A stretch of 64,000 nt of DNA from an uncultured Thermoleophilia bacterium (GTDB lineage Bacteria > Actinomycetota > Thermoleophilia > UBA2241), in NCBI GenBank assembly GCA_963702475.1, contig CAVPCT010000003.1, positions 512,001 through 576,000 of the forward strand, given 5' to 3'. The translations under genes were made by a program, and so were the position numbers. Positions 44,742 through 64,000 of the stretch are shown here, piece after piece (within the stretch, counting starts at the first letter, position 1; the number at the start of each line of letters is the position of its first letter). The notes below the pieces were generated by a model. That model was given only the letters and a program-made list of their open reading frames with translations, was not told the DNA's origin and did no database searches.

Positions 44742-45575
44742 TCACGCCTTCCAGACCGCGATGTCGCCGACGTTGATGTCGGCGGTGGCGTCCACCGGCC
44801 CCATCTTCACCGGCAGGTAGCCGGCCTTCTCGATGAGCAGCGTGTACGTGCCCGGCTCCAGGTCGCGCAGCCAGAAATCGCCGTAGCTGTCGGTCGTGTC
44901 GGAGCAACTGGCGCCGCTCGTCGTGCTGGTCGCCGTGACCGTCGCGCCCTCGGTGCACTCGTCGGCCTCGCTGTCGTACACCGCGCCGGCGATGAACGGC
45001 CTCGGCAGGCCCTTGTAGAACACGCGCGGCTTGACGTCCTCGTGACCGGCCTTGAGCACGGCCTCGGCTTTGGCGATGAGCGCCACGATCTGCGGGTCGT
45101 CCTCGTCGCCGAACGCGAAGGCGCCCGTCGGACACGCGTCCACGCAGCGCGGCTCGGTCCAGCCGTCGTCCAGCAGGTGCGCGCAGAAGGTGCACTTCTG
45201 GGCGATGTTGAGCGAGTCGTTGAAGTAGATGACGTCCTCGTAGGGGCACGCCTCCAGGCAGAGCTGGTTACCGCGGCACTTGTCCGGGTCGATGATCACG
45301 GCCCCGTCGTCGCGCTTGTAGATGGCGTCGGCGTTGCAGGCCGGGATGCACGGGGCCTCGTCGCAGTGCTGGCAGATGCTGTGCGTGTAGGTGACCTTCA
45401 CCTTCGGCACCTGGCCGCGCACCATGTCGGTGATCTTGTTCCAGAACTGGCCGGTGTCGGGCTGCGGCTTGGCGATGGGCGACCAGTCGTTGGCCACGTG
45501 CTCGTCCTTGCAGGCCACCTGGCAGTTGTAGCAGCCGTTGCAGATGTCGTAGTCGATGACGAGGACCTTGCCCAT
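44742..45575 (-). CDS. Transhydroxylase-family beta subunit (Fe-S plus C-terminal beta-sandwich)
   Basis: CNGCYNCQVACKDEH..NDW, CQHCDEAPC..AC, CRGNQLCLEACPY, KCTFCAHLLDDGW..PRC, T..YGDFWL..LEPG.Y; TGATG coupling to alpha subunit. Confidence 0.9.
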   Translation of the reverse strand: MGKVLVIDYDICNGCYNCQVACKDEHVANDWSPIAKPQPDTGQFWNKITDMVRGQVPKVKVTYTHSICQHCDEAPCIPACNADAIYKRDDGAVIIDPDKCRGNQLCLEACPYEDVIYFNDSLNIAQKCTFCAHLLDDGWTEPRCVDACPTGAFAFGDEDDPQIVALIAKAEAVLKAGHEDVKPRVFYKGLPRPFIAGAVYDSEADECTEGATVTATSTTSGASCSDTTDSYGDFWLRDLEPGTYTLLIEKAGYLPVKMGPVDATADINVGDIAVWKA

Positions 45576-48175
45576 CACGCCCTCCCCCAGATGCAGGCTT
45601 CCAATCCGGGCCCGGCACACGGGTGGAACGGCTTCTCGAACGCTTCCGGATACTTGGCCTTGAGTGCTGCCATGTCGGTCTTCTCGATGTCCACGAGGAA
45701 GCCGCTGACGGCGTGGCCGACGGCGTTCTTCGAGGTGGTGTGCCGCGGGACGATGGTGTTGATGGCGCCGCCGCGGTCGAGCTCGCCGGGGACGATGGGG
45801 TCCCACTTGGCGCCGTGGTCGATGTACACGACGTCGGGCATGATGCGCTCGGTCACGTAGGCGCCGGAGAGCACGGCGCCGCGGTCGTTGAAGATCGTGA
45901 CCACGTCGCCGTCCTTGATGCCGTAGCGCTCTGCCGTGGACGGGTGCAGCCAGATGGGATGGTACTGGTAGCCGTCCGGACCGGTGACCTTGCCGGTGTT
46001 GGGGATCTCACGCAGCCAGGTGATGTCCTCGTGCTGCGAATGCACGCTCCAGCGTGGGTGGTTGGAGACCACGAGCAGCGGATACTTCTTGCTGCGCTCC
46101 GTCTCCAGCGTCTCCTCGTGACTGATGCCGCTGGCGACCCACTTGGGCACCGGCGGCCGCTCGAGGTCGTCGGGGAAGTTTTCCGTAAGGCCCTGCGCCT
46201 CGAACTCGAGCTTGCCGGTGGGCGTGGTGAGCGGGTACTTCTCGGGGTCCTTGTAGAAGTTGTAGAACCCGGCCGGCACGTCCTCCCAGCCGTTGTCCGT
46301 GGGGACCGCGTAGTAGCCCTTCTCGTTGAGCTCCTCCCAGGTGATGAGGTCCTCGCAGCGCGAGGTCTCGTACCCGTACTTGATGAGCTCGGGGATGGTC
46401 TTGCCGCCGGTGTACTCCTCCTTGAGGCCGAGGCGCTCGCTGAGCATGACGGCGATCTCGTAGTCGCTGAAGCTCTCGCCCAGCGGCTCGATGCACTTGT
46501 GCTCGGGAAAGAGGAGGTTGTACTGCCCGCTGAAGATGTCGCCGGCGATATCGTCCTCTTCGAGCTTGGTGTTCACGGGGAGGATGATGTCGGCCAGCAG
46601 GCAGTCGTTCTCCAGCCACGGGTGCTGCGCGAACATGAACTCGATGTCCGGGTGGCGCATGGCGTTCACGTAGTCGTTGCCCGAGTTCCAGCAGGTGATC
46701 CAGCTCGGCGAGTCGGTCCACACCATGTGGACCTTGCTGCAGCCGTCGGCCGGGTACTTGTAGTGCACGAACTGGTTGACGCGGTCGGCGGTCTCGGACT
46801 CGCAGCCGTACCAGTCGCACTCGCCCTCGAGGATGGCCTTGGGGATGTACGTCTTGGGGATGAACGACGGGTGGTTGCTCTCGTCCGGGTGGCCGCCGGT
46901 GTAGGCCTTGCGCAGGTACGGCACGCGCAGCGGCTTGGGCTGGGCGTACTGGTCCGGCTTGTCGAACAGGCCCCATTCGATCATCTTGGCCTGGTTCTGA
47001 CCGGGCTTGCCCAGGCCCTGCATGGCCAGGCAGATGCCCTGCAGGCGCGCCGGCTCGGTGGCGTAGGGGCCGCGGATGCCGGGCCCGCCGTTGCCGATGA
47101 CGACCGTGGTGCGCTTGCTCGCCCACTCGTCGGCGAGGGCCTTGATGACGCGCGCCTTGACGCCGCAGATGGGCTCCGCCCACTCCGGTGACTTCTCCAC
47201 GCCGTCCTCGTCGCCCATCACGTAGGCCTCGAACTTGTCGACGCCCACGGCGTGGGTGTCGAGGTACTCCTTGTCGTAGGTGCCCTGCTTGAACCAGCGG
47301 TGGCAGATCGCCAGGTACAGCGCGGCGTCCGTGTTGGGGAGCACCGGGATCCAGCGGTCGGCGTGCACGGCGGCGGCGTAGTTGAGGTCGGGGCACACGT
47401 AGATCTGCTTGATGCCGATCTCACTCCACCAGTAGCTCAGGCGGCTCGGGAGCTGGCCCTGCCAGCCCCACGGGGTGGTCTCCTGGTCGCAGCCCCAGAA
47501 CAGCAGCAGCTCGGCGTTCTTGGAGATGTCCCAGAGCAGGTTGCTCTGCTGGCCCTGGCCGACCGGCTCGCAGCCCCAGAAGTGCTTGTTGCCCCACCAC
47601 CAGCCTTCCCAGCTGTCGGGCTGGCGGATCTGGAGGGTGAAGCCGCCCCAGGCGCGCAGCAGCTTACGCCCCGCGCCGTGGCAGGCCTGGACGACCTTGT
47701 TCTCGCCGTGCTGGTCGCACTGGTACAGCAGGGCGGTCGGCCCGTACTTCTCCTTGATGCGCTGCATCTCGCCGGTGATGACGTCCAGGGCCTCGTCCCA
47801 GGAGATGCGCTTGTACTTGCTCACGCCGCGGTTCTGCGGGTTGCGCTCGCCGTTGGGGTCGAAGTCCACGCGCATCATGGGGTAGCGGATGCGCGCGGGC
47901 GAGTAGACGCGCTTCTTGTAGGCGATGCTGTACGGCGGGATCAGGGTCTTCATGCTGGGCTCGAACGTGCTGCCGCGCACCTCGAACTTCCAGGGGTTCA
48001 GATCCGCCTTCTTGTACTTCCAGTCGTAGTGCATGGGGCGGATGCGGATGATCTTGCCGTCCTTGACGTCGACCATCGACGCGTTGGAGCCGTTCTCCGG
48101 GACGCCGCAGAAGCTGATGTCACGGATCAGGGTCTTTTCCCCCGAGGCTCCGGTCCTGCTCATGTCCTCCGCCAT
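45575..48175 (-). CDS. Divergent AthL-family cytoplasmic Mo-bis-PGD enzyme, alpha subunit (paralogue 1)
   Basis: No signal, no FS0 cluster; VDVKDGKIIRIRP, RVDFDPNGERNPQNRG, PDSWEGWWWG (Ser ligand), NHPRW..H; SD AGGAGG. Confidence 0.88.
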   Translation of the reverse strand: MAEDMSRTGASGEKTLIRDISFCGVPENGSNASMVDVKDGKIIRIRPMHYDWKYKKADLNPWKFEVRGSTFEPSMKTLIPPYSIAYKKRVYSPARIRYPMMRVDFDPNGERNPQNRGVSKYKRISWDEALDVITGEMQRIKEKYGPTALLYQCDQHGENKVVQACHGAGRKLLRAWGGFTLQIRQPDSWEGWWWGNKHFWGCEPVGQGQQSNLLWDISKNAELLLFWGCDQETTPWGWQGQLPSRLSYWWSEIGIKQIYVCPDLNYAAAVHADRWIPVLPNTDAALYLAICHRWFKQGTYDKEYLDTHAVGVDKFEAYVMGDEDGVEKSPEWAEPICGVKARVIKALADEWASKRTTVVIGNGGPGIRGPYATEPARLQGICLAMQGLGKPGQNQAKMIEWGLFDKPDQYAQPKPLRVPYLRKAYTGGHPDESNHPSFIPKTYIPKAILEGECDWYGCESETADRVNQFVHYKYPADGCSKVHMVWTDSPSWITCWNSGNDYVNAMRHPDIEFMFAQHPWLENDCLLADIILPVNTKLEEDDIAGDIFSGQYNLLFPEHKCIEPLGESFSDYEIAVMLSERLGLKEEYTGGKTIPELIKYGYETSRCEDLITWEELNEKGYYAVPTDNGWEDVPAGFYNFYKDPEKYPLTTPTGKLEFEAQGLTENFPDDLERPPVPKWVASGISHEETLETERSKKYPLLVVSNHPRWSVHSQHEDITWLREIPNTGKVTGPDGYQYHPIWLHPSTAERYGIKDGDVVTIFNDRGAVLSGAYVTERIMPDVVYIDHGAKWDPIVPGELDRGGAINTIVPRHTTSKNAVGHAVSGFLVDIEKTDMAALKAKYPEAFEKPFHPCAGPGLEACIWGRA

Positions 48176-48251
48176 ACTGCTACCTCCTGCTCGACGGCTG
48201 AGGAGCCGTGGCGTCGACCGGCCTCCGGCTCCGTGTGACTCCGTGCGCAAT

Positions 48252-48335
48252 TCTCACGATGCGGAACAGCTCGACCGCATCATGGGCACTACTCTCTGCC
48301 CCGGAACGGGGAGTGTCAAGTGCCGCGATGCGGGA
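48252..48335 (-). promoter_or_regulatory. Promoter of paralogue 1 with IclR-type 15-bp boxes
   Basis: Minus strand: TCCCGCATCGCGGCA, TTGACA (48319-48314), then GCCCATGATGCGGTC-N6-TTCCGCATCGTGAGA. Confidence 0.6.
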
Positions 48336-48408
48336 CTCCGGCTACCCTTGAGGATGCCGGCGGGTGACGTTGCGGGGCGGGCGCAGCGCAGCGCCCGAGG
48401 CCCGCGTG

Positions 48409-48927
48409 TCAGTACGCGCGCAGGGTGTCGAGCCGGGCGGCGAGGAAGGCGGCCAACCCGGCGCCGTCCTCGAGGCCGAAGCGGTGCTCGTGCTCCAGGC
48501 CCGAGTCCGTGACCAGGGCGATGGCCTCGCCGGGGGCGCACAGCGGCTCGGCGTGGCCGGCGCCGAGGCGGAACAGCTCCACGCGGTACGGCGCCGTGCG
48601 CTTGTAGCCTTCGGCGACCACGATGTCGAAGTCGCCGAAGTACGTCTTCACGATCTCGGCGAGTCCGAGCTCGCCGTCGAGCTTGGTGATGAACGCCAGG
48701 CGCTCGGGCGAGGAGATGGCGTAGGCACGGGCTCCGGCCTGGCCGTGCCGCCAGGAATCCTTGCCGGGGTGGTCGATCTCGAAGCTGTGCGCGTCGTGCT
48801 TGACGGTGCCGACGCGCAGGTCGAGCTTGACGAGCTCGGGCACGACCTTCTCGATGAGCGTGGTCTTGCCCGAGTCGCTCTTGCCGACGATGGCGACGAG
48901 GGCCGGCTGCTGCGGTGCGTCGTTCAT
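48409..48927 (-). CDS. mobB: Molybdopterin-guanine dinucleotide biosynthesis protein B
   Basis: IVGKSDSGKTTLIEK, TVKHDAH.FEID.PGKDSWRH..AGA, EGYK. Confidence 0.94.
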   Translation of the reverse strand: MNDAPQQPALVAIVGKSDSGKTTLIEKVVPELVKLDLRVGTVKHDAHSFEIDHPGKDSWRHGQAGARAYAISSPERLAFITKLDGELGLAEIVKTYFGDFDIVVAEGYKRTAPYRVELFRLGAGHAEPLCAPGEAIALVTDSGLEHEHRFGLEDGAGLAAFLAARLDTLRAY

Positions 48928-48978
48928 GCGTGTGATGCTATGCGACGACGCGGTCCCGGCGAAACCCGGCCCGGCAGC

Positions 48979-50037
48979 TCACGCCTCGTACACCTCCACC
49001 TCGACCGCCTTCACCGACACGAACACGGGGCCGCCGTCGTCCAGGTGCATCGAGGCGACGGCGCCATGGGTGACCTCGGCGATGATGGGCAGGTCGCCGC
49101 TCACGTGCGCGCGCACGTGGTTGCCGACGACGTCGAGGTCCTCGACGACGCCTCTCCAGACGTTGCGCGGAGAGCCCTCGGGCAGCGAGCGGTGCAGAGC
49201 CACGGCGCGCGGCGGGATCACGGCGAACACTTCACCGCTGAGCGGGAGCGGGTCGGCGGCGATGAGGCGGTGGCCGCCGGTGAGTACGACGGCGCGCTCC
49301 TCGGCGCGGCCGCGGTACAGGTTCATGCCCAGGAGCTCGGCGACATAGCGCGAGCGCGGGTGCGACGAGAGCTCCTCCGGCGTGCCGGTCTGGACCACGC
49401 GCCCGCCCTCCAGCACGACAAGCCGGTCGGCGAGCGTCATGGCCTCGATGGGGTCGTGGGTGATCACGAGGCAGGTGCCCTCGTAGGCGGCAAGGTGACG
49501 GGAGAGCGCCCGCCGCAGGTCGGCGCGGGCGCCGGCGTCCATGGCGGCCAGCGGCTCGTCGAGCAGCAGGAGCCGCGGGTCGGTCGCCAGGGCCCGCGCC
49601 AGGGCGGCGCGCTGTGCCTGACCGCCGGAGAGGGCGCGCGGCTTTGCCGAGGCGCACGCGTCGAGGCCGACGCGCGCCAGCCAGGCCTGTGCGGCGGCGC
49701 GCGCGGCGGGGCGGTTCGCGCCGCGCGACCGCAGGCCGAACGCCACGTTCTCCAGCACCGTCAGGTGCGGGAACAGCAGGTAGTCCTGGAAGACGACGCC
49801 GATCGCGCGCTGCTCGGTGGGCACGTGGACGCCGGCGGCCGGGTCGTCCAGCACGCTTCCATCCAGGACGACCCGGCCGCCGTCCAGCGGGATCAGGCCG
49901 GCGAGCGCCCGCAGCAGCGTTGTCTTGCCGGCCGCGTTGGGACCGAGCAGGGCCACCACCGTCCCGCTCGCCACGGCGAGCTCCACGTCGAGCGCCAGCT
50001 CACCTTTGCGCAGCGCGACGGCCGCTTCCAGGCTCAC
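48979..50037 (-). CDS. modC: Molybdate ABC transporter ATPase with TOBE domains
   Basis: GPNAAGKTT, VFQDYLLFPHL, LSGGQAQR.ALARALA, LLLDEP, GSPRNVW, SVKAVEV. Confidence 0.9.
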   Translation of the reverse strand: MSLEAAVALRKGELALDVELAVASGTVVALLGPNAAGKTTLLRALAGLIPLDGGRVVLDGSVLDDPAAGVHVPTEQRAIGVVFQDYLLFPHLTVLENVAFGLRSRGANRPAARAAAQAWLARVGLDACASAKPRALSGGQAQRAALARALATDPRLLLLDEPLAAMDAGARADLRRALSRHLAAYEGTCLVITHDPIEAMTLADRLVVLEGGRVVQTGTPEELSSHPRSRYVAELLGMNLYRGRAEERAVVLTGGHRLIAADPLPLSGEVFAVIPPRAVALHRSLPEGSPRNVWRGVVEDLDVVGNHVRAHVSGDLPIIAEVTHGAVASMHLDDGGPVFVSVKAVEVEVYEA

Positions 50038-50059
50038 GCGCTCGCCTCCGCCGGCCGGC

Positions 50060-50998
50060 TCATCTGCTCGGGAACCACCGGCCGCGAAGGGCGACCAGTA
50101 CCGTGAGGCAGATGGCCAGCATGACCAGGCTCAGGGCGATGGCCGAGTCGGGGTCGTTCTGCAGTGCGAGATAGACCGCCAGAGGCATGGTCTGCGTGCT
50201 GCCCGGCAGGTTGCCGGCGAAGGTGATGGTGGCGCCGAACTCGCCGAGGGCGCGGGCCCAGCCCAGCGCGGCGCCGGCGCCCAGCGCCGGCGCGATCAGC
50301 GGCAGGGTCACGCGCCGGAACACAGTCCAGCGTCCGGCGCCAAGTGTGGCCGCCGCGTCCTCGTAGCGCCGATCCATGGCGCGGATGCCGGCCTCCACGG
50401 TGATGATCACGAACGGCATGGCGACGAAGGCCTCGGCGACGATGACGCCGGCCGTTGTGAACGGGAGCGTGAGCCCGAAGGCGTGGTCGAGCACCTGACC
50501 CGCCACGCCGTTGCGCCCGAAGGCGAGCAGCAGCGCCACCCCGCCCACCACCGGCGGCAGCACCATGGGGAGCAGTACGACAGCCCGCACGAGGTTGCGG
50601 CCACGGAACGGTACGCGTGCGAGCAGCCAGGCGAGCGGGACACCGAGCACGAGTGATACGGCGAGGGCCCCGAAGGAGCAGACGAGTGACAGTCTGAGCG
50701 CGGTGAGCACGCCCGGCGCGCCGAGGTCCGAGAGCAGGTGGGGCCAGGGGGCGCGGATCACGAGGGCGGCCAGCGGCAGAGCCAGGAAGGCGACGGCGAG
50801 CACGGCGAGCGGTACGAAGCCGAATGGTGCGCCGGCGCCGCGGCGGGCCGGCGCCTCCGAGCCTCTGCGCTTCCGGCCCCGCGCCCACGGCGACGGCGCT
50901 CCGGCCGGCACGAGCGCGTCACCGGTCACCACGGCGAGGTTCGCCGCGGCCTCCCGCGTGCGCCCTCCCCCCTCGGTCATGTCTGCGCGCTCGTCCAT
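50060..50998 (-). CDS. modB: Molybdate ABC transporter permease
   Basis: LPMVLPPVVGGVALL.AFGR.G, FVAMPF, EDAAATLGA, WARALGEFGATITFAGN.PG.TQTMPLAVY; start uncertain. Confidence 0.93.
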   Translation of the reverse strand: MDERADMTEGGGRTREAAANLAVVTGDALVPAGAPSPWARGRKRRGSEAPARRGAGAPFGFVPLAVLAVAFLALPLAALVIRAPWPHLLSDLGAPGVLTALRLSLVCSFGALAVSLVLGVPLAWLLARVPFRGRNLVRAVVLLPMVLPPVVGGVALLLAFGRNGVAGQVLDHAFGLTLPFTTAGVIVAEAFVAMPFVIITVEAGIRAMDRRYEDAAATLGAGRWTVFRRVTLPLIAPALGAGAALGWARALGEFGATITFAGNLPGSTQTMPLAVYLALQNDPDSAIALSLVMLAICLTVLVALRGRWFPSR

Positions 50999-51017
50999 GG
51001 TGCCCGGCGCCCTCAGC

Positions 51018-51872
51018 TCACTCCGCTGCCCCGAAGCCGAAGCGGCGGAGCGTCTGCTGCCCGGCGTCCGAGAGCACGTACTTGACGAACTGGTCGGCCA
51101 TGAACGTGGAGCCGGCCTCCTTCAGCGTCGCGATGGGGTAGGTGGCCGTGACGTTCTGGTCGCTGGGGATGGTCACCCCGCCGACCTCGCCGCCGGCGGC
51201 CCGCACGTCGCTCACGTAGACGATGCCCGCGTCGGCCTCACCGAGCGCTACCTTGGCGACCACGCCCTTGACGTTCTCCTCGAGCGACACCGGTTTCACC
51301 TTCACGCCCGCGCGCGCGAGGACGTCCGCGGAGTACCTGCCGGCGGGGACCTCGGGCGCGGCCAGGACGACCTTGAGGTCAGGGTCGGCCAGCGAAGCGA
51401 GGCCGGTGACGCCGAGCGGGTTCTCGGGCGCGACGGCGACGGCGAGCTCGTTGGTCGCGAACACCTGAGGAGTGGTCGTGTCGCCGCTGACCCTCTCCAT
51501 GGTCGACGTGTCGGCGGTGGCGAGCACATCGGCCGGCGCCCCTTGTCCGATCTGGGCCACCAGGTCCTGGCTCCCGGCGAAGTCGAACACGACCTTCACG
51601 CCGGGGTGGTCCTGCTCGAAGTCGGCGCCGATCTCGGTGAACGCCTCGCTCAGCGACGCCGCCGCGAGGACGTGCAGCGTGGTCGCATCGTCCCCGGACG
51701 AACCGCCGCAGGCAGCAGAACCCAGCAGGCTCGCGACGGCGAGGGCGAGGAACGCCGCGAAGGCAAGCCTGCGTGCGAGACAGGCGAGAGGTGGTGGCTG
51801 AGCCACCGGCCCGGCCGCCCGCGGCGGTCCTGCCCCGGCGGCCCGACCCGGCGGGGTCGAGCGACGAGTCAT
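51018..51872 (-). CDS. modA: Molybdate ABC transporter binding lipoprotein
   Basis: Lipobox SAAC, AAASL.EAF, FAGS..L..QI..GAPADV, VPAG.Y, GEADAGIVY.SD; SD AAAGGAG. Confidence 0.93.
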   Translation of the reverse strand: MTRRSTPPGRAAGAGPPRAAGPVAQPPPLACLARRLAFAAFLALAVASLLGSAACGGSSGDDATTLHVLAAASLSEAFTEIGADFEQDHPGVKVVFDFAGSQDLVAQIGQGAPADVLATADTSTMERVSGDTTTPQVFATNELAVAVAPENPLGVTGLASLADPDLKVVLAAPEVPAGRYSADVLARAGVKVKPVSLEENVKGVVAKVALGEADAGIVYVSDVRAAGGEVGGVTIPSDQNVTATYPIATLKEAGSTFMADQFVKYVLSDAGQQTLRRFGFGAAE

Positions 51873-51878
51873 GTCCCT

Positions 51879-52018
51879 CGCTCCTTTCCAAGCACGGGGA
51901 GGTCGAGGCGTTTCCACCCCGGCCCACGGCGGCGACACCTCGCCGCCCCACGGTCTTTCCGTGGTACGGCCCGGCGCCCGTAGCAGGCGGGCTGCCGTAG
52001 GGCGAAGGGCTTGGAGTC
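51879..52018 (-). promoter_or_regulatory. Moco RNA motif (molybdenum cofactor riboswitch candidate) upstream of modABC-mobB
   Basis: Minus strand starts CTCCAAGC and ends CCTCCCCGTGCTTGGAAAGGAG, matching the recalled moaA-leader 3' signature CCUCCCGUAUUUGGAAAGG with SD in P1; stems CGCCC..GGGCG, CCACGG-AAAGA-CCGTGG, GGGGTG-GAAA-CGCCTC. Confidence 0.8.
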
Positions 52019-52106: not shown

Positions 52107-53243
52107 CTACCGGTCGAAGCCGGCGAGATCGAAGCGCCGGACCAGGTACTCGGCCAGGGCCGGCACCTCGTCGCGGGCGAAGCGGTGGTGGTGTGGCAGG
52201 TCCTCATCGGTGACGAGCGCCAGGGTGACCTGCGCGTCGAGCAGCGGGGCCTCACGGCCCTCGCCGGGGCTGAAGACCTCCACGACCCAGGGCGTCTCGT
52301 GGCGGTACCCTTCGCACACCACGACGTCGTAGGAGCTGAAGTAGCGCGAGACGATCCTGTGCAGGCTGGGCTCGCCGGTCAGGTCGCTGACGAAGGCGAA
52401 CCGCGATGCCGATCCGACGGCGTAGGCGTGCGCGCCGGCCTGGCTGTGACGCCACGAGTCCTTGCCCGGAGTGTCGATGTCGAAGCGTGCCACGCGCTTG
52501 ATGGCTGCCACGCTGAGGCCGCGGCGCGTGAGCTCCGGGATGAGCCTCTCGACGAGTGTCGTCTTGCCGCTCCCCGAGCGGCCGACGACGCCGAGCACGA
52601 GCGGCCCGGAGCCCGTGGCGCCGGGTCCGGCGGCCTCGTCCGGCGCCTCGCCGGCGAGGCGCCGCGCCTCGGCCCAGTCGCCCGGCGTGTTGACGTTGAA
52701 GAACGGCGCCGGGTCGGCGAACGGGATCCGGCGCACCCGCACCAGCGGGAAGAGATCGAGGATGCTGTGCGCGCCGGCGGCCAGCAGCGCCTCGATGTGC
52801 GGCAGGCAGCCAGGCGCATACACGGCGTGCAGCGGCTCCCAGTGGTCGCCGACGACCGGCGTCGCGACGTCCACGCCGGCGGCCTCGCGAAGCACACGCT
52901 CGACGGCCGAGGTCTGCGGAAACGCCACGTCGGTCGCCAGCGCGAAGAACGGCTCGCCGTACCGCGTGAGCACTGAGGCGATCCCGGCGAGCGGCGAGCC
53001 GGTGACGACGTCGGGCACGACCTCCACGCCTGCCGGCAGGTCCTCCGGCGCCTGTGCGGCGTCTCGCACCGAGAGCGCGACGACAGGGAAGATGCCGCGC
53101 AGGAACGCGAGGTTGCGCTGCAGGAGGGTCTCGCCGCCCAGGCTGAGGCGTCGCTTGTCGCGCCCCAGGCGGCGTGCCTCGCCGCCGGCGAGCAGGGCGG
53201 CGACGCGGATGCCGTACGTGTCGATGCGGGCGGACTGGCTCAC
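52107..53243 (-). CDS. mobAB: MobA-MobB fusion (Mo cofactor guanylyltransferase plus MobB domain)
   Basis: LLAGGEARRLGRDK, PLAGI, EPLHAVY, FFNVNTP.D, then VVGRSGSGKTTL...DIDTPGKDSWRH. Confidence 0.9.
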   Translation of the reverse strand: MSQSARIDTYGIRVAALLAGGEARRLGRDKRRLSLGGETLLQRNLAFLRGIFPVVALSVRDAAQAPEDLPAGVEVVPDVVTGSPLAGIASVLTRYGEPFFALATDVAFPQTSAVERVLREAAGVDVATPVVGDHWEPLHAVYAPGCLPHIEALLAAGAHSILDLFPLVRVRRIPFADPAPFFNVNTPGDWAEARRLAGEAPDEAAGPGATGSGPLVLGVVGRSGSGKTTLVERLIPELTRRGLSVAAIKRVARFDIDTPGKDSWRHSQAGAHAYAVGSASRFAFVSDLTGEPSLHRIVSRYFSSYDVVVCEGYRHETPWVVEVFSPGEGREAPLLDAQVTLALVTDEDLPHHHRFARDEVPALAEYLVRRFDLAGFDR

Positions 53244-53416: not shown

Positions 53417-53704
53417 GTGGCGCTGCTCATCATCAACCACGTCGTCGGCAACTACGAGACGTTCAAGGAAGTCTTCCTGGACGACGAGGAGCGCCGCAGG
53501 CGCCTGGGCTCGAAGGGTGCGCGAGTGTACCGCATCGCCGGCGAGCCCAACAACATCCGCGTCGTGCTCGAGTTCGACACGGTCGAGCAGGCCCACGAGC
53601 ACGCCGAGGGCCTTGAGTTGCACGAAGCCATCAAGTGGGCCACCGGTAACGTGTCCATGCCGCGCTTCGAGGTGCTCGAGCACATCATGGACACCGAGGC
53701 CTGA
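53417..53704 (+). CDS. Small dimeric alpha/beta-barrel-like (ABM/cyclase-type) protein
   Basis: SD GGAGGAGG plus GTG; H.V.NY..FK..F...RR..G.....VYR....PN.I.V..EFD pattern; 95 aa. Confidence 0.7.
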   Translation: MALLIINHVVGNYETFKEVFLDDEERRRRLGSKGARVYRIAGEPNNIRVVLEFDTVEQAHEHAEGLELHEAIKWATGNVSMPRFEVLEHIMDTEA

Positions 53705-53790: not shown

Positions 53791-53854
53791 TTGACTCTCC
53801 GCCCCGCGCCGGTAGGATTCCCATAGTGCGGACAGCCGATTCCGCATGCCGGAA
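53791..53854 (+). promoter_or_regulatory. athL promoter with tandem IclR-type boxes
   Basis: TTGACT-16-TAGGAT; TCCCATAGTGCGGAC (53819-33)-N6-TTCCGCATGCCGGAA (53840-54). Confidence 0.7.
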
Positions 53855-56518: not shown

Positions 56519-57348
56519 AGAGCTGGCACATGACCATCGACGTGGAGCGCTGCCACGACTGCAACGACTGCTTTCTCGCCGACAAGGACGAGTTCGTCGG
56601 CAACGACTTCCCGCCCTACTCGGCCCCCCAGCCCTGGCACGGCCACCGCTGGATGAACATCAAGCGCAAGGAGCGCGGCCAGTACCCCATCGTGCAGACT
56701 GCCTACCTGCCGACGCCGTGCATGCACTGCGACGCGGCGCCGTGCCTCACCGCCGACGGCGCCGTGCACAAGCGCGCGGACGGCCTCGTCATCATCGACC
56801 CGGTCAAGGCCAAGGGCCGCAAGGAGATCGTCGCGAGCTGCCCCTACAGCGTCATCTACTGGAACGACGAGCTCGAGCTGCCGCAGAAGTGCACCGGCTG
56901 CGCCCACCTGCTCGACGACGGCTGGACCGAGACGCGTTGCAGCCAGGTGTGCCCCACGGAGGCGATCAAGTACGTCTCCTGCGAGGAGGCCGAGTTCGAC
57001 GCGCTCGTGGCCGCCGAGGGCCTCGAGCGCTACCGCGGCAACCTCGGCACCCAGCCGCGCGTCTGGTACAAGAACCTGCACCGCTGGGAGAAGGCCTTCG
57101 TGGCCGCCAGCGTGGTCCGCGGCGACGACGACGAGTGCGCCGAGGGCGCGACCATGAGCGTGGCCCGCGGCGGCCAGGCCTGCGGCGAGGCCGCCGCCGA
57201 CCTCTTCGGCGAGGTGCTCGTCGACAAGCTCGCGCCGGGCGCCGAGTACGACGTCACCATCACGCTCGACGGCTACGAGCCGGCGCAGTGCACGGTGACG
57301 CTGGAGAAGAGCCTCAACCTCGGGACGATCACCCTGGCCGAGGCCTGA
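56515..57348 (+). CDS. bthL: Transhydroxylase beta subunit homologue (three Fe-S clusters)
   Basis: GHRWMNI.R.ERG.YP, PTPCMHC..APC, IIDP.KAKG.KE...CPY, QKCT.CAHLLDD, PRV.YKNL.R.EK; ATGA coupling. Confidence 0.88.
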   Translation: MKSWHMTIDVERCHDCNDCFLADKDEFVGNDFPPYSAPQPWHGHRWMNIKRKERGQYPIVQTAYLPTPCMHCDAAPCLTADGAVHKRADGLVIIDPVKAKGRKEIVASCPYSVIYWNDELELPQKCTGCAHLLDDGWTETRCSQVCPTEAIKYVSCEEAEFDALVAAEGLERYRGNLGTQPRVWYKNLHRWEKAFVAASVVRGDDDECAEGATMSVARGGQACGEAAADLFGEVLVDKLAPGAEYDVTITLDGYEPAQCTVTLEKSLNLGTITLAEA

Positions 57349-57549: not shown

Positions 57550-57616
57550 TTGACGCGGTACTCACCCGTCCGTAGCATCGCGCCCGTATGATGAGCTGTA
57601 CGTCCGCATTATGGAC
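57550..57616 (+). promoter_or_regulatory. iclR promoter with tandem boxes (probable autoregulation)
   Basis: TTGACG-17-TAGCAT; GCCCGTATGATGAGC (57582-96)-N5-GTCCGCATTATGGAC (57602-16). Confidence 0.7.
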
Positions 57617-57724
57617 GCATGCCGGTCCCGATGGCCCCGTCACGGTCTGCGCGCAGGCGGCTGCGCGGCGCACGACCGGACGGGGCGCAGGATGCGCGCC
57701 CGCGCGACGCGAGGAGAAGACGGA

Positions 57725-58528
57725 GTGAGCGATACGAGGACCGAGGGCAGCCGGGCCAACCCGCCCGAGCGGCGCATGGGCGTGCAGGTCATCGCCCGCG
57801 CCGCCGAGATCTGCCGCGAGCTGGCGACCGCGGTCGACGGGCTCACCACCGTGGAGCTGGCGGAGCGGCTCGGCCTGTCGCGCCCGACGGTCTACCGCAT
57901 CCTGAGGGCTCTGGCGGACGAGGACTTCGTGCGCGAGTTGTCGCGCGGCCGCTACGCCGTCGGGCCGGCGTTCCTCGTCATCGGCGGGTCGACCTACGGT
58001 GGGCTCCGCCACGACATGCGTCCGTTCATGCGGGAGCTCTCCAACGAACTGGGCGAGACGATCGACCTGGCCATGCTCGACAACGGCGAGGCGCTGTTCG
58101 TCGACCAGTTCGTCTCCGTGCGCGGCCTTCGCGTGGTCGCCCACATGGGCGCGCGGCTGCCGCTCCACTGCACCGCGAGCGGCAAGGCGCTGCTCGCGGC
58201 GCTGGAGCCCGACGAGGTCGGCCGGGCGCTCGCCGAACGCCTGAGCGTGTTCACGCCCAACACCGTCACCGACAAGGCCGTGTTGTTCCAGGAGCTCGGC
58301 CGCGTGCGCGCCGAGGGCGTGGCCTACGACTACGAGGAGTACGTGATGGGCGTGTGCGCCGTGGCGACGCCCGTGACGGACGCCGTGGGGGCCGTGGCCG
58401 CACTCACGGTCGAGGTGCCGGCGGCGCGCTTCCGCGGCAGCGAGGAGCGCATCGTCGATGCCCTGCTGCGCTGCCGGACGCAGGCGCACCGCGCCCTGCT
58501 CGGCTCAGAGCAGCCACATCCGGCCTGA
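57725..58528 (+). CDS. IclR family transcriptional regulator
   Basis: VQVIARA..I, ELAERLGLSRPTVYRIL, L.ETIDL, G.RLPLHCTASGKALLA, D.EEY..GV.AVA.P. Confidence 0.95.
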   Translation: MSDTRTEGSRANPPERRMGVQVIARAAEICRELATAVDGLTTVELAERLGLSRPTVYRILRALADEDFVRELSRGRYAVGPAFLVIGGSTYGGLRHDMRPFMRELSNELGETIDLAMLDNGEALFVDQFVSVRGLRVVAHMGARLPLHCTASGKALLAALEPDEVGRALAERLSVFTPNTVTDKAVLFQELGRVRAEGVAYDYEEYVMGVCAVATPVTDAVGAVAALTVEVPAARFRGSEERIVDALLRCRTQAHRALLGSEQPHPA

Positions 58529-58636: not shown

Positions 58637-58703
58637 TTGACCGACCGGTTCCGGCGTCTTAGTATTCCGTCCACAATGTGAGCGATATGTCCGCATTGTG
58701 AGC
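58637..58703 (+). promoter_or_regulatory. Binding-protein promoter with tandem boxes
   Basis: TTGACC-17-TAGTAT; GTCCACAATGTGAGC (58669-83)-N5-GTCCGCATTGTGAGC (58689-703). Confidence 0.75.
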
Positions 58704-58731
58704 TGTGACTCACTACCAAGGGGGACCACGG

Positions 58732-60111
58732 ATGGCTTCTGAGTACGACATGGGCACGTCCCGCCTCGTCACGCGGCGCGACTTCCTGAGGACCGGCGTG
58801 CTCGCCGGCGCCGCGCTCGGCGTAGGGGGCGCCCTGACCGGTTCGCTCGCCGCTTGCGGCACCGTGAGCGAGGACTCGGGTGGCACCAGCAGCGGGAGCA
58901 GCTCCGGCGCCGAGGGCCGCGAGCTCAAGATCGGTTTCGTCACGCCGCTCACCGGGCCGCTCGCCTCGTTCGGCATTCCGGACGCGTGGTGCGTGAAGCA
59001 GTGGGAGGCCGCCGTCGCGGACGGCCTCAAGTGCGGCGACGGCCAGGTCCACCCCATCAAGTTCATCGTGAAGGACACACAGTCGGACACCAACCGCGCC
59101 GCGCAGGTGACCGGCGACCTCATCACCAACGACGGCTGCGACATCATCATGGCGGCTTCCACAGCCGACACCGTGCCGCCGGTGGCCGACACGTGCGAGG
59201 CCATGGCCGAGCCGTGCGTCACCAACGACTGCCCGTGGCAGGCGTACTTCTTCGGCCGCGGCGGCGACCCCGCCGTGGGCTTCGAGTGGACCTATCACAG
59301 CTGGTGGGGACTGGAGGGAATCACCGCGACGTTCGTCTCCATGTGGGACTCGATCAAGACCAACAAGAAGGTCGCCGAGATGTGGCCCAACGACGGCGAC
59401 GGCCTCGCCTGGGCCGATGAGAAGACGGGCCAGCCGCCGGTCCTCAAGGCCGGCGGCTACACCATCATCGACGGCGGCCGCTACCAGGACCTCACCGACG
59501 ACTTCACGCCGCAGATCGCGAAGTTCAAGGCGGCCGGCGCCGAGATCCTGAGCGGCGTCATGCTGCCCCCCGACTTCACCAACTTCTGGAAGCAGTCGCT
59601 GCAGCAGGGCTTCAATCCCACCATCGCCACCGTGGGCAAGGCGCTCCTGTTTCCGCAGTCGCTGGAGGCGCTCGGCGACGTCGGCTACAACCTCTCCAGC
59701 GAGTGCTGGTGGTCGCCGAACCACCCGTTCAAGTCCTCGCTGACCGGCCAGACCTGCAAAGAGATCGCCGACCAGTACGAGGCGGACAACAGCGCGCAGT
59801 GGACGCAGCCGATCCTGCACTACGCCATCTTCGAGGTCGTCGCCGACGCCCTCAAGCGCGCGACGAACGTGGACGACAAGGCCGTCATCCGCGACGCCGT
59901 CGCCTCCACCGACATGGAGACCATCGGCGGCCGCATCACGTGGGACAGCGGTGACAAGGCGCTCAACCCGGTCCCGAACGTCTGCACCACCCCCATCACC
60001 GGCGGCCAGTGGGTCAAGGGCGAGAAGTACCCGTACGACCTGGTGGTAGTGAACAACTCGCAGGCTCCCGAAGTCCCGGTACAGGCCGAGCTGCAGCCGC
60101 TCCAGTACTGA
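58732..60111 (+). CDS. Tat-exported LivJ-like (type I) ABC solute-binding lipoprotein
   Basis: TRRDFL, lipobox LAAC, KIGFVTPLTGPLA.FG, KDTQSD.NRA, PWQ..FFGRG, WWSP.HP..SSLTG, GGQW. Confidence 0.9.
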   Translation: MASEYDMGTSRLVTRRDFLRTGVLAGAALGVGGALTGSLAACGTVSEDSGGTSSGSSSGAEGRELKIGFVTPLTGPLASFGIPDAWCVKQWEAAVADGLKCGDGQVHPIKFIVKDTQSDTNRAAQVTGDLITNDGCDIIMAASTADTVPPVADTCEAMAEPCVTNDCPWQAYFFGRGGDPAVGFEWTYHSWWGLEGITATFVSMWDSIKTNKKVAEMWPNDGDGLAWADEKTGQPPVLKAGGYTIIDGGRYQDLTDDFTPQIAKFKAAGAEILSGVMLPPDFTNFWKQSLQQGFNPTIATVGKALLFPQSLEALGDVGYNLSSECWWSPNHPFKSSLTGQTCKEIADQYEADNSAQWTQPILHYAIFEVVADALKRATNVDDKAVIRDAVASTDMETIGGRITWDSGDKALNPVPNVCTTPITGGQWVKGEKYPYDLVVVNNSQAPEVPVQAELQPLQY

Positions 60112-60175
60112 GCTGCGCAGCAGGCTCAACGTGAGGTGCGCCGCAAGGTACACCGCACACTGAGCACAGCACAGA

Positions 60176-60214
60176 GACCGGGGCGGGCGGGCCCTTCGCC
60201 CGCCCGCCCCGGTC
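60176..60214 (+). terminator. 17-bp-stem hairpin after the binding-protein gene
   Basis: GACCGGGGCGGGCGGGC-CCTTC-GCCCGCCCGCCCCGGTC. Confidence 0.7.
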
Positions 60215-60422
60215 CGTCACCTCCGGTCGCCTGCGGCGCACCCCCTGCGCCGCGGCCCGTGACCGCCCATGGGCTCGGCGGCCGCGAGGTACGCGAGGGG
60301 CGCCGTCCTTCCCACGGGACGGCGCCCCTCTTCTTGGCGGCCGACCCGCTCGACGCGGCCTGCGGGCACTCGTGGGCGCCGCACGCATCCTCCCGAGCAT
60401 CGCGCAGGTGCTCTGCGACCGC

Positions 60423-60488
60423 TTGACCCTGTCCGTGCGCCTGCGCTATCGTTCTATTCAGCGGAATGATAGTTCCGATATTCGGAAC
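60423..60488 (+). promoter_or_regulatory. Paralogue 3 promoter with tandem boxes
   Basis: TTGACC-18-TATCGT; TTCTATTCAGCGGAA (60452-66)-N6-TTCCGATATTCGGAA (60473-87; perfect GTTCCG-N5-CGGAAC). Confidence 0.75.
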
Positions 60489-60540
60489 GAAACGGCGGAT
60501 CCGCAGCGATCCCGCCACGGCTTCAGGCGAGGAGGCGGAC

Positions 60541-63500
60541 ATGGCGACGCGAGGGATGCGGCGGGCGGCGCGCACGCTGGACAGGGCGAAGGGCAAGCTC
60601 GCCGCTATCCAGTTCGCGGCCGCGCTGTCCGGCCTTGAGGTCCTGCTGCGCACCACGGCCGCGCGGCACCCGCGGTTCGCTGCGCGGCTCAGGCAGCGCG
60701 ACCTGGTCGCGCTGATCCGCCTGGCCGACGGCAGCATCGCCCGTGCGTACTCCATCCGTGACGGCAGGGTCCGTTCCCGGTCGGGCCTGCACCCGTCGCC
60801 CGACCTCACGATGACCTTCGACTCGGCGGAGGTCGCCAACCGCGTGATGCGGCCTGACCGCGACTACCTCGAGTTCATCGACGCGCTCAAGAACTTCCAG
60901 ATGCACGTCGAGGGCCCCGACGATCTCGCCGTGTGGTTCTCGGAGACGCTCCAGTCGCTGCTCAGCGCCGGTCTCGAGTTCGGCACCGACGCGGGCGAAG
61001 GCGTGCGCCGCTACACGAGTAACACCAACGGCGGGCCCGGTCTTCGTCTACGTGCGAGGACGGCCGGATCCTGCGCATCACGCCAATCGAGTTCGACGCG
61101 GATGATGCGCAGCCGTGGACCATCCACGCACGCGGCACGGCGTTCACGCCGCCGCGCAAGACCACCGTCAGTTCGCACACGCTGGCCTGGAAGTCGCTGA
61201 TCTACTCGCCCGATCGCCTGCTCTACCCGATGAAGCGCGTGGACTGGGACCCGGACGGCGAGCGCAACCCGCAGAACCGCGGCGTCTCCGGATACGAGCG
61301 CATCGGCTGGGACGAGGCGCTCGACCTGGTGGTCGCGGAGATCAAGCGCGTGAAGCGCGAGCACGGGCCGGGCGCCATCATGAACGGCAGCGGCTCGCAC
61401 CACACCTGGGGCGTGCTCGGCTACTGGCTGAGCGCCCGCATCCGCTTCTTCAACATGCTGGGCTGGACCCCTGTGATGCACAACCCCGACAGCTGGGAGG
61501 GCTGGTACTGGGGCGCCGCCCACCATTGGGGCCAGACGGCGCGAAACGGCGGTGGCGAGACCTACGGCACGGTGGAGGACCTGCTGCGGCACGCGGAGAT
61601 GGTCGTGTTCTGGTCGTCCGACCCGGAGGCCACGAGCGGCGTGTATGGCGCGCACGACGGGACGATCCGCCGGCAGTGGCTCAAGGATCTCGGCATCCCG
61701 CTCGTGCACATCGACCCATACCACAACCACACGGCGTCCTGGATGGGGGGCAAGTGGCTGGCGCCGCGGCCGGGGACGGACAGCGCGCTCGTGCTGGCGA
61801 TCGCGCATGTGTGGATGACGGAGGGTCTCTACGACGCGGAGTACGTCGCCGAGCGGACCGTCGGGTTCGAGAAGTGGCGCGCCTACGTCCTCGGCGAGGA
61901 GGACGACGTCGCCAGAACGCCGGAGTGGCAGGAGGCAGAGACCGGCGTGCCCGCGCGCGAGGTGCGTGCGCTCGCGCGCGCGTGGGGCAAGAAGAAGACC
62001 TACCTCGCCGCCGGCGGCCTCGTCGGCTTCGGCGGCGCCTGCCGCACCGCCACCGGCACTGACTGGGCCCGCGGCGTGGTCTGCCTCATGGCCATGCAGG
62101 GTCTCGGTAAGCCGGGCGTGAACATGGGCTGCCTGCAACAGGGCACGCCGCTCGACACGCACTTCTTCTTTCCGGGGTACGCCGAGGGCGGTTACTCCGG
62201 TGACCTCTACGGCACCGCACTGAGCATCAACATGTACCAGCGCATGCCGCAGCTGCCCACCGTCAACACGGTGTCCCAGGTCGTGCCACGCCTCAGGATC
62301 CCCGAGGCCGTCATGGACGGCCACGTGGAGAGCTGGCCCACGGATTCGAAGTCGATCGAGGGCCAGTTCATGCGCTACGAGTACCCGGCCCCCGGTCACA
62401 GCGAGGTCAAGCTGTACTACAAGTACGGCGGCTCGCACTTCGGCACCATGGTCGACACCAACCGCTACGCGCGCATGTACCGCTCGGACAAGCTGGAGTG
62501 CGTCGTGAACCAGGCCATCTGGATGGAGGGCGAGACGAAGTTCGCCGACCTCATCCTGCCGGCGTGCACCAACTTCGAGCGCTGGGACATCAGCGAGTCC
62601 GCCAACTGCGGCGGCTACATCCAGCACGCCTACACGCAGTGCAACCACCGCGTGCTGGTCATGCAGCACAAGTGCATCGAGCCGCTCGGCGAGTCGCGCT
62701 CCGACCACCAGATCTTCCTCGACATCGCCACGCGGCTGGGCCTGGGGTCCATGTACTCCGAAGGCGTCACCGAGCTGGACTGGTGCAAGCGTCTCTTCGA
62801 CGGCACCGACCTGCCGCGGCGCGTCGGCTGGAAGGAGTTCCTGAAGAAGGGCTACTACGTGGTGCCGGCGCCGCCGGAGGAGCGGCGCGACCCCGTCTCG
62901 TACCGCTGGTTCGCCGAGGGCCGGCAGAAGGACACGCCGGAGCTCACGCCGCTGCCGGCCGACTACACGGGGGACTACGGGTACGGGCTCCAGACGCAGT
63001 CGGGCAAGCTCGAGTTCGAGGCGTCGAGCCTCAAGCGTTTCGACGCGGACGACCCCGAGCGCCCGCCGCTCATGAAGTACGTGCCGGCGTGGGAGGGTCC
63101 GCACGCCGCGGAGCTGTTCGCGAAGTACCCGCTGCAGCTCATCACCCCGCACCCCCGGCACAGCTTCCACACGCAGAGCGACGGCAAGCGCGCGGTGGTG
63201 AACGACGTCAAGGACCACCGCGTGCTGGTGGACGGCTACTACTACTGGGTGGTGCGGGTGAGCCCCGCCGACGCGGCGGCCCGGGGTCTGCGGCACCACC
63301 AGCTGGTCAAGGTCTTCAACGACCGCGGAGCGGTGATCTGCGCGGTCCAGCTGACGGAACGCGTCCCGCCCGGTACAGTGCACGCATACGAGTCGTCGGC
63401 CGTCTACGAGCCCATCGGCGAGCCGGGTGAGTCCCCGGACAGGGGCGGGTGCATGAACACGCTCACGCCGGGGCGCAGCATCATCCGCGCGTCGCACTCC

Positions 63501-63554
63501 CTGGCTGCGAACTCCTGCCTCGTGCAGGTGGAGGCCTGGACGCCGGACGACTGA
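60541..63554 (+). CDS. AthL-family Mo enzyme with N-terminal SCP2-like domain (paralogue 3; two apparent +1 frameshifts at ~61039 and ~61055)
   Basis: SD GAGGAGG; removing two bases gives continuous ...SNTNGGPVFVYVEDGRILRITPIEFD...YPMKRVDWDP (~1003 aa); GSHH, HNPDSWEGWYWG, FPGYAEGG, NCGGY. Confidence 0.85.
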
Positions 63555-63616
63555 AGGACCGGGGCTGTACGCCCGCGGGGCCGGAGGCCCGGCGGGCGTA
63601 CGAAAGGGGTCGTCAG

Positions 63617-64000
63617 ATGGCACGAGCGACGGACGGACGCGGGGTCGACGCGGGGGGTGGGTCAGACAAGGGCGCCATGCAGGTGGTCACGAGGGCCGCC
63701 GCGGTGCTGGGCGCTCTCGCCGAGCCAGGCGGCGGCCGCAGTCTCGGGCAGCTGGCCGATCGCACCGGCCTGCCCAAGACGACGGTGCACCGCATCTGCA
63801 CCGCTCTCGAGAGCGTCGGGTACGTGCAGGTGGATCCGGCCACGGGACAGCGCGAGCTCGGCCCGGCGCTGCTGCGTCTCGCGGTGATCGGCCGGCGCGA
63901 CCTGCGCAGCGTTCTCGAGCCGCACCTGGCGCGCCTCTCCCACGACCTCAACGAGACGGTGGACCTCGCCGTGCTGGACGGAGGCAGCATCCTGTTCGTG
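63617..64000 (+). CDS. Second IclR family regulator (runs off the window end)
   Basis: MQVVTRAAAVL.AL, SLGQLADRTGLPKTTVHRI, LGP.L, L.ETVDLAVLDG; not in the ORF track because it is open at the edge. Confidence 0.9.
   Translation, partial: MARATDGRGVDAGGGSDKGAMQVVTRAAAVLGALAEPGGGRSLGQLADRTGLPKTTVHRICTALESVGYVQVDPATGQRELGPALLRLAVIGRRDLRSVLEPHLARLSHDLNETVDLAVLDGGSILFV

Follow-up and report, generated by a model that had tools for sequence, protein, structure and literature searches.

A candidate island for oxygen-free hydroxybenzene breakdown, with three transhydroxylase-family molybdoenzymes, in an uncultured Thermoleophilia bacterium

The window examined here, a stretch of 64,000 nucleotides from an uncultured Thermoleophilia bacterium (positions 512,001 to 576,000 of contig CAVPCT010000003.1, assembly GCA_963702475.1), probably carries the first half of a conserved ~38-kb island for the oxygen-free breakdown of plant tri- and dihydroxybenzenes. 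Within it lie three catalytic (alpha) subunits of the molybdenum-bis-pyranopterin guanine dinucleotide (Mo-bisPGD) type and two iron-sulfur (Fe-S) beta subunits, all related to the transhydroxylase AthL/BthL of Pelobacter acidigallici (PDB 4v4c, 4v4d, 4v4e). The case for the island is carried by the membership of one alpha in the AthL clade itself, by the active-site residues of that alpha, and by genes of a phloroglucinol pathway that follow past the window end. The alpha and beta genes, called from third-position G+C content together with Pfam and NCBIfam matches, are:

44742-45569, minus strand: beta1, Fe-S subunit and partner of alpha1 (Pfam Fer4_11 and CarboxypepD_reg)
45575-48175, minus strand: alpha1, an intact Mo-bisPGD subunit of 866 residues (Pfam AhtL-like_1st (PF21423), Molybdopterin and Molydop_binding)
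53914-56518, plus strand: alpha2, with the same Pfam domains as alpha1 spread over both pieces of a broken frame
56515-57348, plus strand: beta2, Fe-S subunit (Fer4_11 and NCBIfam Fe-S subunit matches)
60541-63554, plus strand: alpha3, long-form catalytic subunit (Pfam matches on the C-terminal part; N-terminal domain of SCP2 fold at 60541-61038)

The motif PDSWEGW is present in the translations of alpha1, alpha2 and alpha3. The PF21423 match of alpha2 has an E value of 6.8e-26; the scanned piece of alpha3 begins past this domain, which its close homologues carry. No Pfam match to Molybdop_Fe4S4 or TAT_signal was found in any of the three, and their domain order is that of AthL, likewise without a Tat signal or an N-terminal Fe-S domain. 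Chain 4v4c_A is the best PDB match of both alpha1 (448 bits) and alpha3 (953.7 bits), and the PDB copy searched contains a solved structure for only one AthL-family member. An earlier reading of the same DNA from its letters alone (the sequence-only reading) had described cytoplasmic alphas of the transhydroxylase family, a description upheld by PF21423, by the 4v4c_A matches and by the lack of a TAT_signal match. To our knowledge, a function has been assigned genetically to only two or three members of this family. CarboxypepD_reg was seen in beta1, while beta2 was scanned only as part of a longer frame.

The placement of the alphas was determined with a tree of the AthL-homologous part of 48 gene models, taken from this genome and from 23 loci chosen for taxonomic spread; removal of seven models with fewer than 600 residues covered and addition of 13 database proteins gave 54 rows and 855 columns (LG+G4). 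The AthL reference (L098), a near-identical orthologue of the crystallised enzyme with 875 residues, was drawn from 201 searched genomes, all of the order to which a Desulfuromusa metagenome-assembled genome (MAG) belongs; six of them gave strong matches. Two Desulfuromonadales genomes (G172 and G156) encode 875-residue proteins that match residues 1-875 of 4v4c_A at 2050 and 2046 bits. The AthL clade (7 rows, support 99/99) holds the AthL reference, a second copy encoded on contig C4 of this genome, and alpha2. Its sister, a clade of long forms (26 rows, 100/100), holds alpha3 and the Thauera chlorobenzoica protein P0287, whose UniRef name is 3,5-dihydroxybenzoate hydroxylase (DbhL) large subunit. 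A distant clade (11 rows, 100/100) contains a tight group of seven rows (100/100) to which alpha1 belongs. The position of the root is unsure because of the long outgroup branch, and the same grouping came out of a quick tree that lacked the last four proteins. The sequence-only reading had named AthL, RehL and DbhL as the points of comparison for such a phylogeny: alpha2 falls with AthL and alpha3 with the DbhL-named protein, but alpha1 with neither.

Expanding the search to the whole genome (4.3 Mb in 9 contigs, 93.8% complete, 6.5% contaminated) shows that the 'three-paralogue' label given by the sequence-only reading was too narrow, since there are 15 AthL-family alpha gene models, six of them broken and two pairs being 93% duplicates, along with only seven beta genes. 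One of these alphas (C4:267301-269892, in L111) reaches 82% identity with AthL and is accompanied by a beta of its own; within ~9 kb to each side of it, the query set picked up no genes of the phloroglucinol pathway.

The alpha2/beta2 pair looks like an orthodox AthL/BthL-type enzyme. Within its clade, alpha2 is 58-60% identical to the AthL orthologue and equal to it at all 12 active-site positions checked. Of the AthL residues referred to below, H144, R153, D174, S175 (the Mo ligand) and Y404 presumably have catalytic roles. The BthL orthologue has 12 Cys in three clusters, as expected for three [4Fe-4S] sites. This pattern is kept by beta2 except for the fourth Cys ligand of group one, which is replaced by Asp; the beta of the C4 copy has the same Asp. 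In the beta tree, beta2 can be assigned neither to the AthL-type nor to the long-type betas. Judged by clade and residues, alpha2/beta2 would convert pyrogallol to phloroglucinol.

A route that could take phloroglucinol further begins where the window ends. Following alpha3 are an IclR-type regulator (IclR2), two short-chain dehydrogenases/reductases (SDRs), a gene of 3-hydroxyacyl-CoA dehydrogenase type (3HCDH), a third IclR gene, a cyclase and a BKACE gene, and after these a binding protein with a Tat signal and parts of an ABC transporter. The pathway genes are located as follows:

L087 1425-7761, 0.4-6.8 kb past the window end: SDR, SDR, 3HCDH, cyclase (PF04199) and BKACE (PF05853)
C3:580454 (cyclase) and C3:581943 (BKACE), 4.5-6.7 kb past the window end

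The available part of PMC10470551 describes a phloroglucinol pathway of Clostridium scatologenes (PGR-DPGC-TfD-TAL) built from four families, and the same four families are co-located after alpha3, a match at the family level. Compared with that pathway, there are two SDRs and two IclR regulators here, and an ABC transporter replaces the major-facilitator transporter. By analogy with these families, an SDR would reduce phloroglucinol, the cyclase-family hydrolase would open the ring, the 3HCDH-type enzyme would then oxidise the product, and BKACE would cleave it. A probable ring-reduction route, on which the sequence-only reading had made its proposal depend, is present next to the window. Cyclases of the AthL-bearing genomes G172 and G156 share 68-70% identity with the one found here, and in one of these two genomes cyclase, long alpha and BKACE lie within 10 kb. 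In the relative G003, the gene order from beta1 to the transporter is kept except for the first binding protein (SBP1), which is missing.

The association of pathway genes with the long clade extends beyond these two genomes. Among the long-clade loci, which come from several phyla (the best 80 of 596 confirmed stretches, from species-representative genomes), BKACE, cyclase or 3HCDH occurs in the examined flanks of 16, and all three occur in 7; for the 35 loci of at least 20 kb, BKACE is present in 8 and cyclase in 6. In the deltaproteobacterial locus L012, BKACE, SDR and 3HCDH lie directly upstream of the long alpha. Elsewhere in the present genome, L088 (C9:170001-186000) and L089 (C2:354001-374000) hold one long-form and one short-form paralogue, each beside BKACE and SDR genes and with no beta detected next to it.

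The long form represented by alpha3 (54% identical to the AthL orthologue) differs from AthL in carrying an extra N-terminal SCP2 domain, in R153W and W354F, and in the lack of an adjoining beta, the next gene being IclR2. Long-clade rows carry W, Y, K or F at position 153 in place of Arg, and W354 has likewise given way, mostly to F (17/22 rows). D174, S175 and H144 are kept in every clade. The N-terminal domain (~145 residues) is fused to the alpha in 79 of the 80 loci, and the 80th ends at a contig edge. An AlphaFold model of the alpha3 domain from a 40-row alignment reached a pLDDT (predicted local distance difference test) of 92.5, and a fold search with it returned the UbiJ-SCP2 structure 6h6o (E 1e-5), the SCP2 domain of an alkylsulfatase, and sterol carrier proteins. 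Pfam gave no family for the domain even at E values up to 5, and a protein atlas search with it returned AthL-like clusters only; the SCP2 assignment comes solely from the fold search. Literature searches found no paper on the SCP2 fusion.

Homologues of alpha3 are mostly 985-1025 residues long and 73-94% identical (best 120 clusters), and the long-clade loci, 61-87% identical to alpha3, come from phyla that include Actinomycetota, Thermodesulfobacteriota, Chloroflexota, Pseudomonadota and Bacillota. Where a beta match was present (73 loci), the beta stands directly after the alpha in 65, upstream in 7 (Actinomycetota), and upstream on the other strand in 1. The protein P0287, taken to stand for DbhL of Thauera by its UniRef name, is a long form of 1002 residues with the same N-terminal sequence pattern as alpha3, to which it is 66% identical over 829 residues. 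It belongs to a proteobacterial subclade in which the rows checked, all other than P0287, have Tyr at position 153, whereas alpha3 belongs to an anaerobe subclade with Trp. In the betas of the three proteobacterial long loci that were checked, the Cys of one cluster of the BthL pattern are gone. The DbhL route leads to hydroxyhydroquinone, whereas alpha3 adjoins phloroglucinol-pathway genes. A relative of the DbhL-named protein with an aromatic residue at 153 and an SCP2 domain, alpha3 most likely hydroxylates, or moves a hydroxyl group onto, a different and less polar phenol that would feed the same pathway. RhLS of Azoarcus (Aromatoleum) anaerobius belongs to the same family according to the available part of PMC10100899; the tree rows do not include RhL.

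The third branch, alpha1/beta1, is uncharacterised and very conserved, and has what its sequence indicates to be a remodelled pocket and an extra Fe-S site. Only 34% identical to the AthL orthologue, alpha1 does not reproduce the Arg153/His145/Trp354/Tyr404-loop pocket: H145G, R153C and W354G are accompanied by a 400-408 loop (containing Y404) that cannot be aligned, and the same holds for all seven rows of its clade. With the changes in alpha3, this agrees with the proposal of the sequence-only reading that the alphas differ in their active sites. In beta1 and other alpha1-type betas there are 15 conserved Cys, including a partial third group that BthL lacks, and the beta tree groups beta1 with the betas of alpha1-type enzymes. 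In the database, the 120 clusters that match alpha1 best show 81-95% identity to it and bear source names from Thermoleophilia, Chloroflexota, Dehalococcoidia and Aminicenantes; overall, identities of 79-95% extend across Actinomycetota, Chloroflexota, Aminicenantes, Bacillota (e.g., an orthologue in a Flavonifractor MAG, 79-81%) and Desulfuromonadales. Within the genus, 16 of 18 other genomes match alpha1 at E <= 0.001, and five have a full-length orthologue (90-95% identical). The two genomes that encode the crystallised AthL, G172 and G156, each have an alpha1 orthologue at 86% with a beta1-type partner; they also carry long SCP2 forms and further paralogues. The lineage of the AthL model organism thus possesses the unstudied clades as well. 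Gene neighbours of alpha1/beta1 elsewhere are AraC or IclR regulators, signalling proteins, an integrase or a transporter, and give no hint of the substrate because no partner is shared across phyla. Literature searches found no paper on this branch. With its more complete Fe-S chain, alpha1/beta1 probably performs an electron-transferring step on a related phenol, and it appears to share an operator of IclR type with alpha2.

Cofactor supply, transport and regulation account for the remaining genes of the region. On the minus strand, a co-directional run leads from mobA-mobB through a molybdenum cofactor (Moco) riboswitch to modA, modB, modC, mobB, alpha1 and beta1; on the plus strand, the order is alpha2, beta2, IclR1, a Peripla_BP_6 protein, alpha3 and IclR2, which crosses the window end. 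The features that accompany the alpha and beta genes are:

48258-48281: operator-like palindrome GATGCGG-N10-CCGCATC, upstream of alpha1 and downstream of a TTGACA-like hexamer
48409-48927, minus strand: mobB (Pfam MobB, E 1.7e-40)
48979-50037, minus strand: modC (Pfam ABC_tran and TOBE)
50060-50998, minus strand: modB (Pfam BPD_transp_1)
51018-51872, minus strand: modA (Pfam SBP_bac_11, E 1.6e-47; start put at the first ATG after the riboswitch)
51881-52016, minus strand: aptamer of a Moco riboswitch within the leader of modA (Rfam RF01055, 48 bits, gathering threshold 36, E 2.3e-8)
52107-53243, minus strand: mobA-mobB fusion (Pfam NTP_transf_3 and MobB)
53827-53846: operator-like inverted repeat TGCGGA-N8-TCCGCA, upstream of alpha2
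57603 and 58690: TCCGCAT boxes, before IclR1 and before the binding protein, respectively
57611-58528, plus strand: IclR1 (IclR_C, E 3e-45, and HTH_IclR; longest open frame, true start probably later)
58705-60111, plus strand: solute-binding lipoprotein (Peripla_BP_6, E 5.6e-33; N-terminus TRRDFL...SLAACG resembling a Tat lipoprotein signal)
60473-60487: palindrome TTCCGATATTCGGAA, a second operator type, upstream of alpha3
63449-64000, ending at L087:1411, plus strand: IclR2 (Pfam HTH_IclR), running beyond the window

All of the components listed by the sequence-only reading (three PDSWEGW alphas, two betas, modABC, mobB, mobA-mobB, the Moco motif, the IclR genes and the binding lipoprotein) are confirmed by these annotations. 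At the family level, modABC under the Moco riboswitch together with mobA and mobB could supply the bis-molybdopterin guanine dinucleotide (bis-MGD) cofactor, and the phenols themselves would be imported by transporters that depend on binding proteins.

Five promoter regions share an arrangement in which a TTGAC-type hexamer is followed by boxes. Window-wide counts are not above chance, with 10 copies of TCCGCAT found versus 9.35 expected and 4 copies of TGCGG-N8-13-CCGCA versus 2.55, and the argument for operators therefore rests on position and on conservation in G003. Four of the 10 TCCGCAT boxes are found in the stretches immediately before genes of the island, namely alpha1, alpha2, IclR1 and the binding-protein gene. 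In G003, GATGCGG-N10-CCGCATC stands upstream of both alpha1 and alpha2 (L107, 12152 and 19366), the window alpha2 bearing the shorter TGCGGA-N8-TCCGCA. The alpha3 palindrome, TTCCG-N5-CGGAA, is present in both genomes, the G003 copy being TTCCGCTAAGCGGAA (L108, 4193). The related operator boxes of the sequence-only reading are hence partly sustained, by their placement upstream of genes and their conservation in G003, but not by enrichment across the window, and the alpha3 palindrome is of a different kind. This pattern points to alpha1 and alpha2 being members of the same regulon and alpha3 of a different one, and co-regulation of alpha1 and alpha2 fits with their common operator being conserved in a second genome.

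Taken together, the preferred reading is that alpha2/beta2 would deliver phloroglucinol to the downstream route, while the two further family members would broaden the range of substrates or provide an intermediate that is already hydroxylated. There are several points that weigh against it. The copy on C4 may be the main pyrogallol enzyme instead of alpha2, being the closest AthL orthologue of the genome, with its own beta and on another contig. The NCBIfam matches of the SDR, 3HCDH, cyclase and BKACE genes are generic or below cut-off (BKACE 269 versus 382 bits; none for the cyclase), and 64 of the 80 long-clade loci have no pathway marker in the flanks examined. The absence of a beta adjoining alpha3, the lack of conserved neighbours for alpha1/beta1 across phyla, and the fact that the function name of P0287 is a database label and not the result of an assay count in the same direction. 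The catalytic roles of the AthL residues are those that Messerschmidt et al. 2004 are said to have described. Additionally, no UbiD-type gallate decarboxylase was found in the genome. The sole UbiD-family gene (L112 4569-6071, on C5) was rejected as a candidate by its TIGR03701 match (597 bits against a cut-off of 495.9), which identifies it as the menaquinone biosynthesis decarboxylase of the futalosine route. Of the two enzymes that the sequence-only reading suggested looking for, gallate decarboxylase was therefore not found as a UbiD-type gene, while SDRs of the phloroglucinol-reductase family are found downstream.

Alternatively, the three enzymes may work in relay, with alpha3 and/or alpha1/beta1 acting as oxidative hydroxylases, coupled to quinones or Fe-S clusters, that make hydroxyhydroquinone or 1,2,3,5-tetrahydroxybenzene, which alpha2/beta2 then uses as substrate or co-substrate to form phloroglucinol. 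The classical transhydroxylase needs a tetrahydroxybenzene co-substrate. In favour of a relay are the order alpha2-beta2-...-alpha3, kept in L007, L008 and G003, the grouping of alpha3 with a hydroxylase-named protein, the likeness of its SCP2 domain to UbiJ, a binder of quinone intermediates, and the fact that the genome makes menaquinone, judged by the TIGR03701 match above cut-off; the extra Fe-S site in beta1 and the operator apparently common to alpha1 and alpha2 are also compatible with it. In other phyla, however, the long form stands alone with its beta next to phloroglucinol genes, in loci that lack a short AthL model (L012). The relay is an unlikely explanation.

A second alternative, that the three are redundant isoenzymes all converting pyrogallol to phloroglucinol, draws on their shared family, on the retention of D174, S175 and H144 in all three alphas, and on their presence in one island. 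It is very unlikely, given that Arg at position 153 has become Cys in alpha1 and Trp in alpha3, that W354 and the Y404 loop differ too, that the alphas fall into three well-supported clades each conserved across phyla, and that an AthL orthologue at 82% already exists elsewhere in the genome.

A role of alpha1/beta1, and possibly of alpha3, as cytoplasmic S- or N-oxide reductases and not as phenol enzymes is more improbable still. The names 'trimethylamine-N-oxide reductase' among the sources of alpha1 and alpha3 homologues and bisC_fam as the top NCBIfam match of alpha1 could be read that way, but the bisC_fam score of alpha1 is 317.9 against a cut-off of 1017.55. Across the alpha pieces scanned, the best scores are 130.8-319.8 bits against this bisC_fam cut-off, with the TorA and DmsA models also below cut-off. 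Furthermore, alpha1 contains PF21423, is paired with a multi-cluster Fe-S beta bearing the C-terminal domain of BthL type, shares an operator with alpha2, and co-occurs as a type with AthL in G172 and G156.

Two of the three alpha genes are interrupted in the assembly, alpha2 by one frame change near 54814 and alpha3 by two, 16 bases apart, near 61039 and 61055. The alpha2 break is one surplus G in the GGG run at 54814-54816 that is missing from both relatives compared (G003 and L007), and the alpha3 breaks are two surplus single bases missing from all three orthologues in a DNA alignment (G003, L007 and L008). Of four other metagenome runs compared, three have contigs that omit one base here. 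Two of these runs do so at 54814, with two contigs apiece, and the third at 54818, and either omission would restore the alpha2 frame; no row near 61039 or 61055 was among the rows listed, so these contigs are uninformative on alpha3. In G003, alpha2 and alpha3 are each in a single frame, and outside the breaks the alpha genes are 86-92% identical to intact orthologues. Other genes of the assembly show similar interruptions. The ftsH gene is split over two frames, 14047-15822 (AAA and the first 35 of 191 M41 positions) and 15524-16306 (the remaining M41), residues ~293-456 of FtsH being encoded in the second frame and GTP cyclohydrolase I coming next (16168-16902); this split is probably an assembly indel. 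A minus-strand gene for an MMPL-family transporter (28696-31335) is split into two or three overlapping frames. In the present genome (G000), C9:1-9131 and C2:367626-376761 are 93% identical copies with 63 gap openings in 9.2 kb; the duplicated region carries two tandem AthL-family genes and stems either from two strains binned together or from a duplicate that was poorly polished.

The breaks in alpha2 and alpha3 are probably assembly indels and not gene decay, because the surplus bases are missing from the orthologues and, for alpha2, from other metagenomes, and ftsH is split too. That alpha2 and alpha3 are real pseudogenes here, leaving alpha1/beta1 alone functional, is scarcely credible, since the one and two frame breaks of the assembly and the six broken models among 15 paralogues have to be set against single surplus bases at all three sites (missing from 2/2 orthologues for alpha2 and 3/3 for alpha3), the omission of the alpha2 base in contigs of three of the four other runs, the split ftsH of the same window, the gap-ridden duplicate copies, and the high identity of the alpha genes beyond the breaks. 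Read literally, the breaks would lead to two of the three alpha genes being wrongly annotated as pseudogenes.

The G+C content of the window is 66-73% throughout, and several further genes were noted in it. A separate molybdoenzyme set of respiratory type lies directly beside beta1, at 39263-44549. It consists of a PsrA-like alpha with an Fe4S4 domain (39263-41995), an Fe-S subunit with four clusters and a membrane subunit of NrfD type; a regulator of the Rrf2 family comes next. A PucR-type regulator is located at 3019-4728 and a gene of the aldehyde ferredoxin oxidoreductase family at 6913-8877. The gap between mobA-mobB and alpha2 contains a coding-like open frame of 95 residues (53417-53704) with no match in an NCBIfam scan, and the matching spacer in G003 is only ~220 bases long.

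Another group of enzymes invites comparison, namely the catechol dehydroxylases of gut Coriobacteriia (Dadh and relatives), which are also bis-MGD enzymes of Actinobacteria acting on aromatic hydroxyl groups. These cluster away from the transhydroxylase (PMC7028382, in the part available), and the window alphas match PF21423 and 4v4c instead.

The interpretation offered by the sequence-only reading, a candidate undescribed system for anaerobic hydroxyaromatic conversion in an apparent actinobacterium, is partly supported. The host is indeed a soil-type actinobacterium, of Thermoleophilia type, but 'undescribed system' was too strong: alpha2/beta2 looks orthodox, alpha3 belongs to a clade with a DbhL-named member, and the downstream genes match the pathway described in the available part of PMC10470551. 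The branches of alpha3 and alpha1 have been studied little or not at all.

As a tentative extension, and with the odds somewhat against the combination as a whole, the clades may divide labour such that soil actinobacteria living as strict or facultative anaerobes channel several hydroxybenzenes into a single phloroglucinol pathway. In such a scheme, alpha1/beta1 would act on phenols as a hydroxylase or dehydroxylase of a new, redox-active kind, the alpha3 hydroxylase would give electrons to, or take a greasy substrate from, the membrane quinone pool, and one of the two would make the tetrahydroxybenzene co-substrate. How polyphenols are degraded where oxygen is lacking matters for the carbon stored in peat and wet soils, a connection discussed as the 'enzyme latch' idea in the available part of PMC10470551. 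With three clades side by side, related operators and the pathway attached, the island offers a compact gene set for probing two unstudied clades, of which that of alpha1 shows unusual conservation between phyla and lacks an assigned function.

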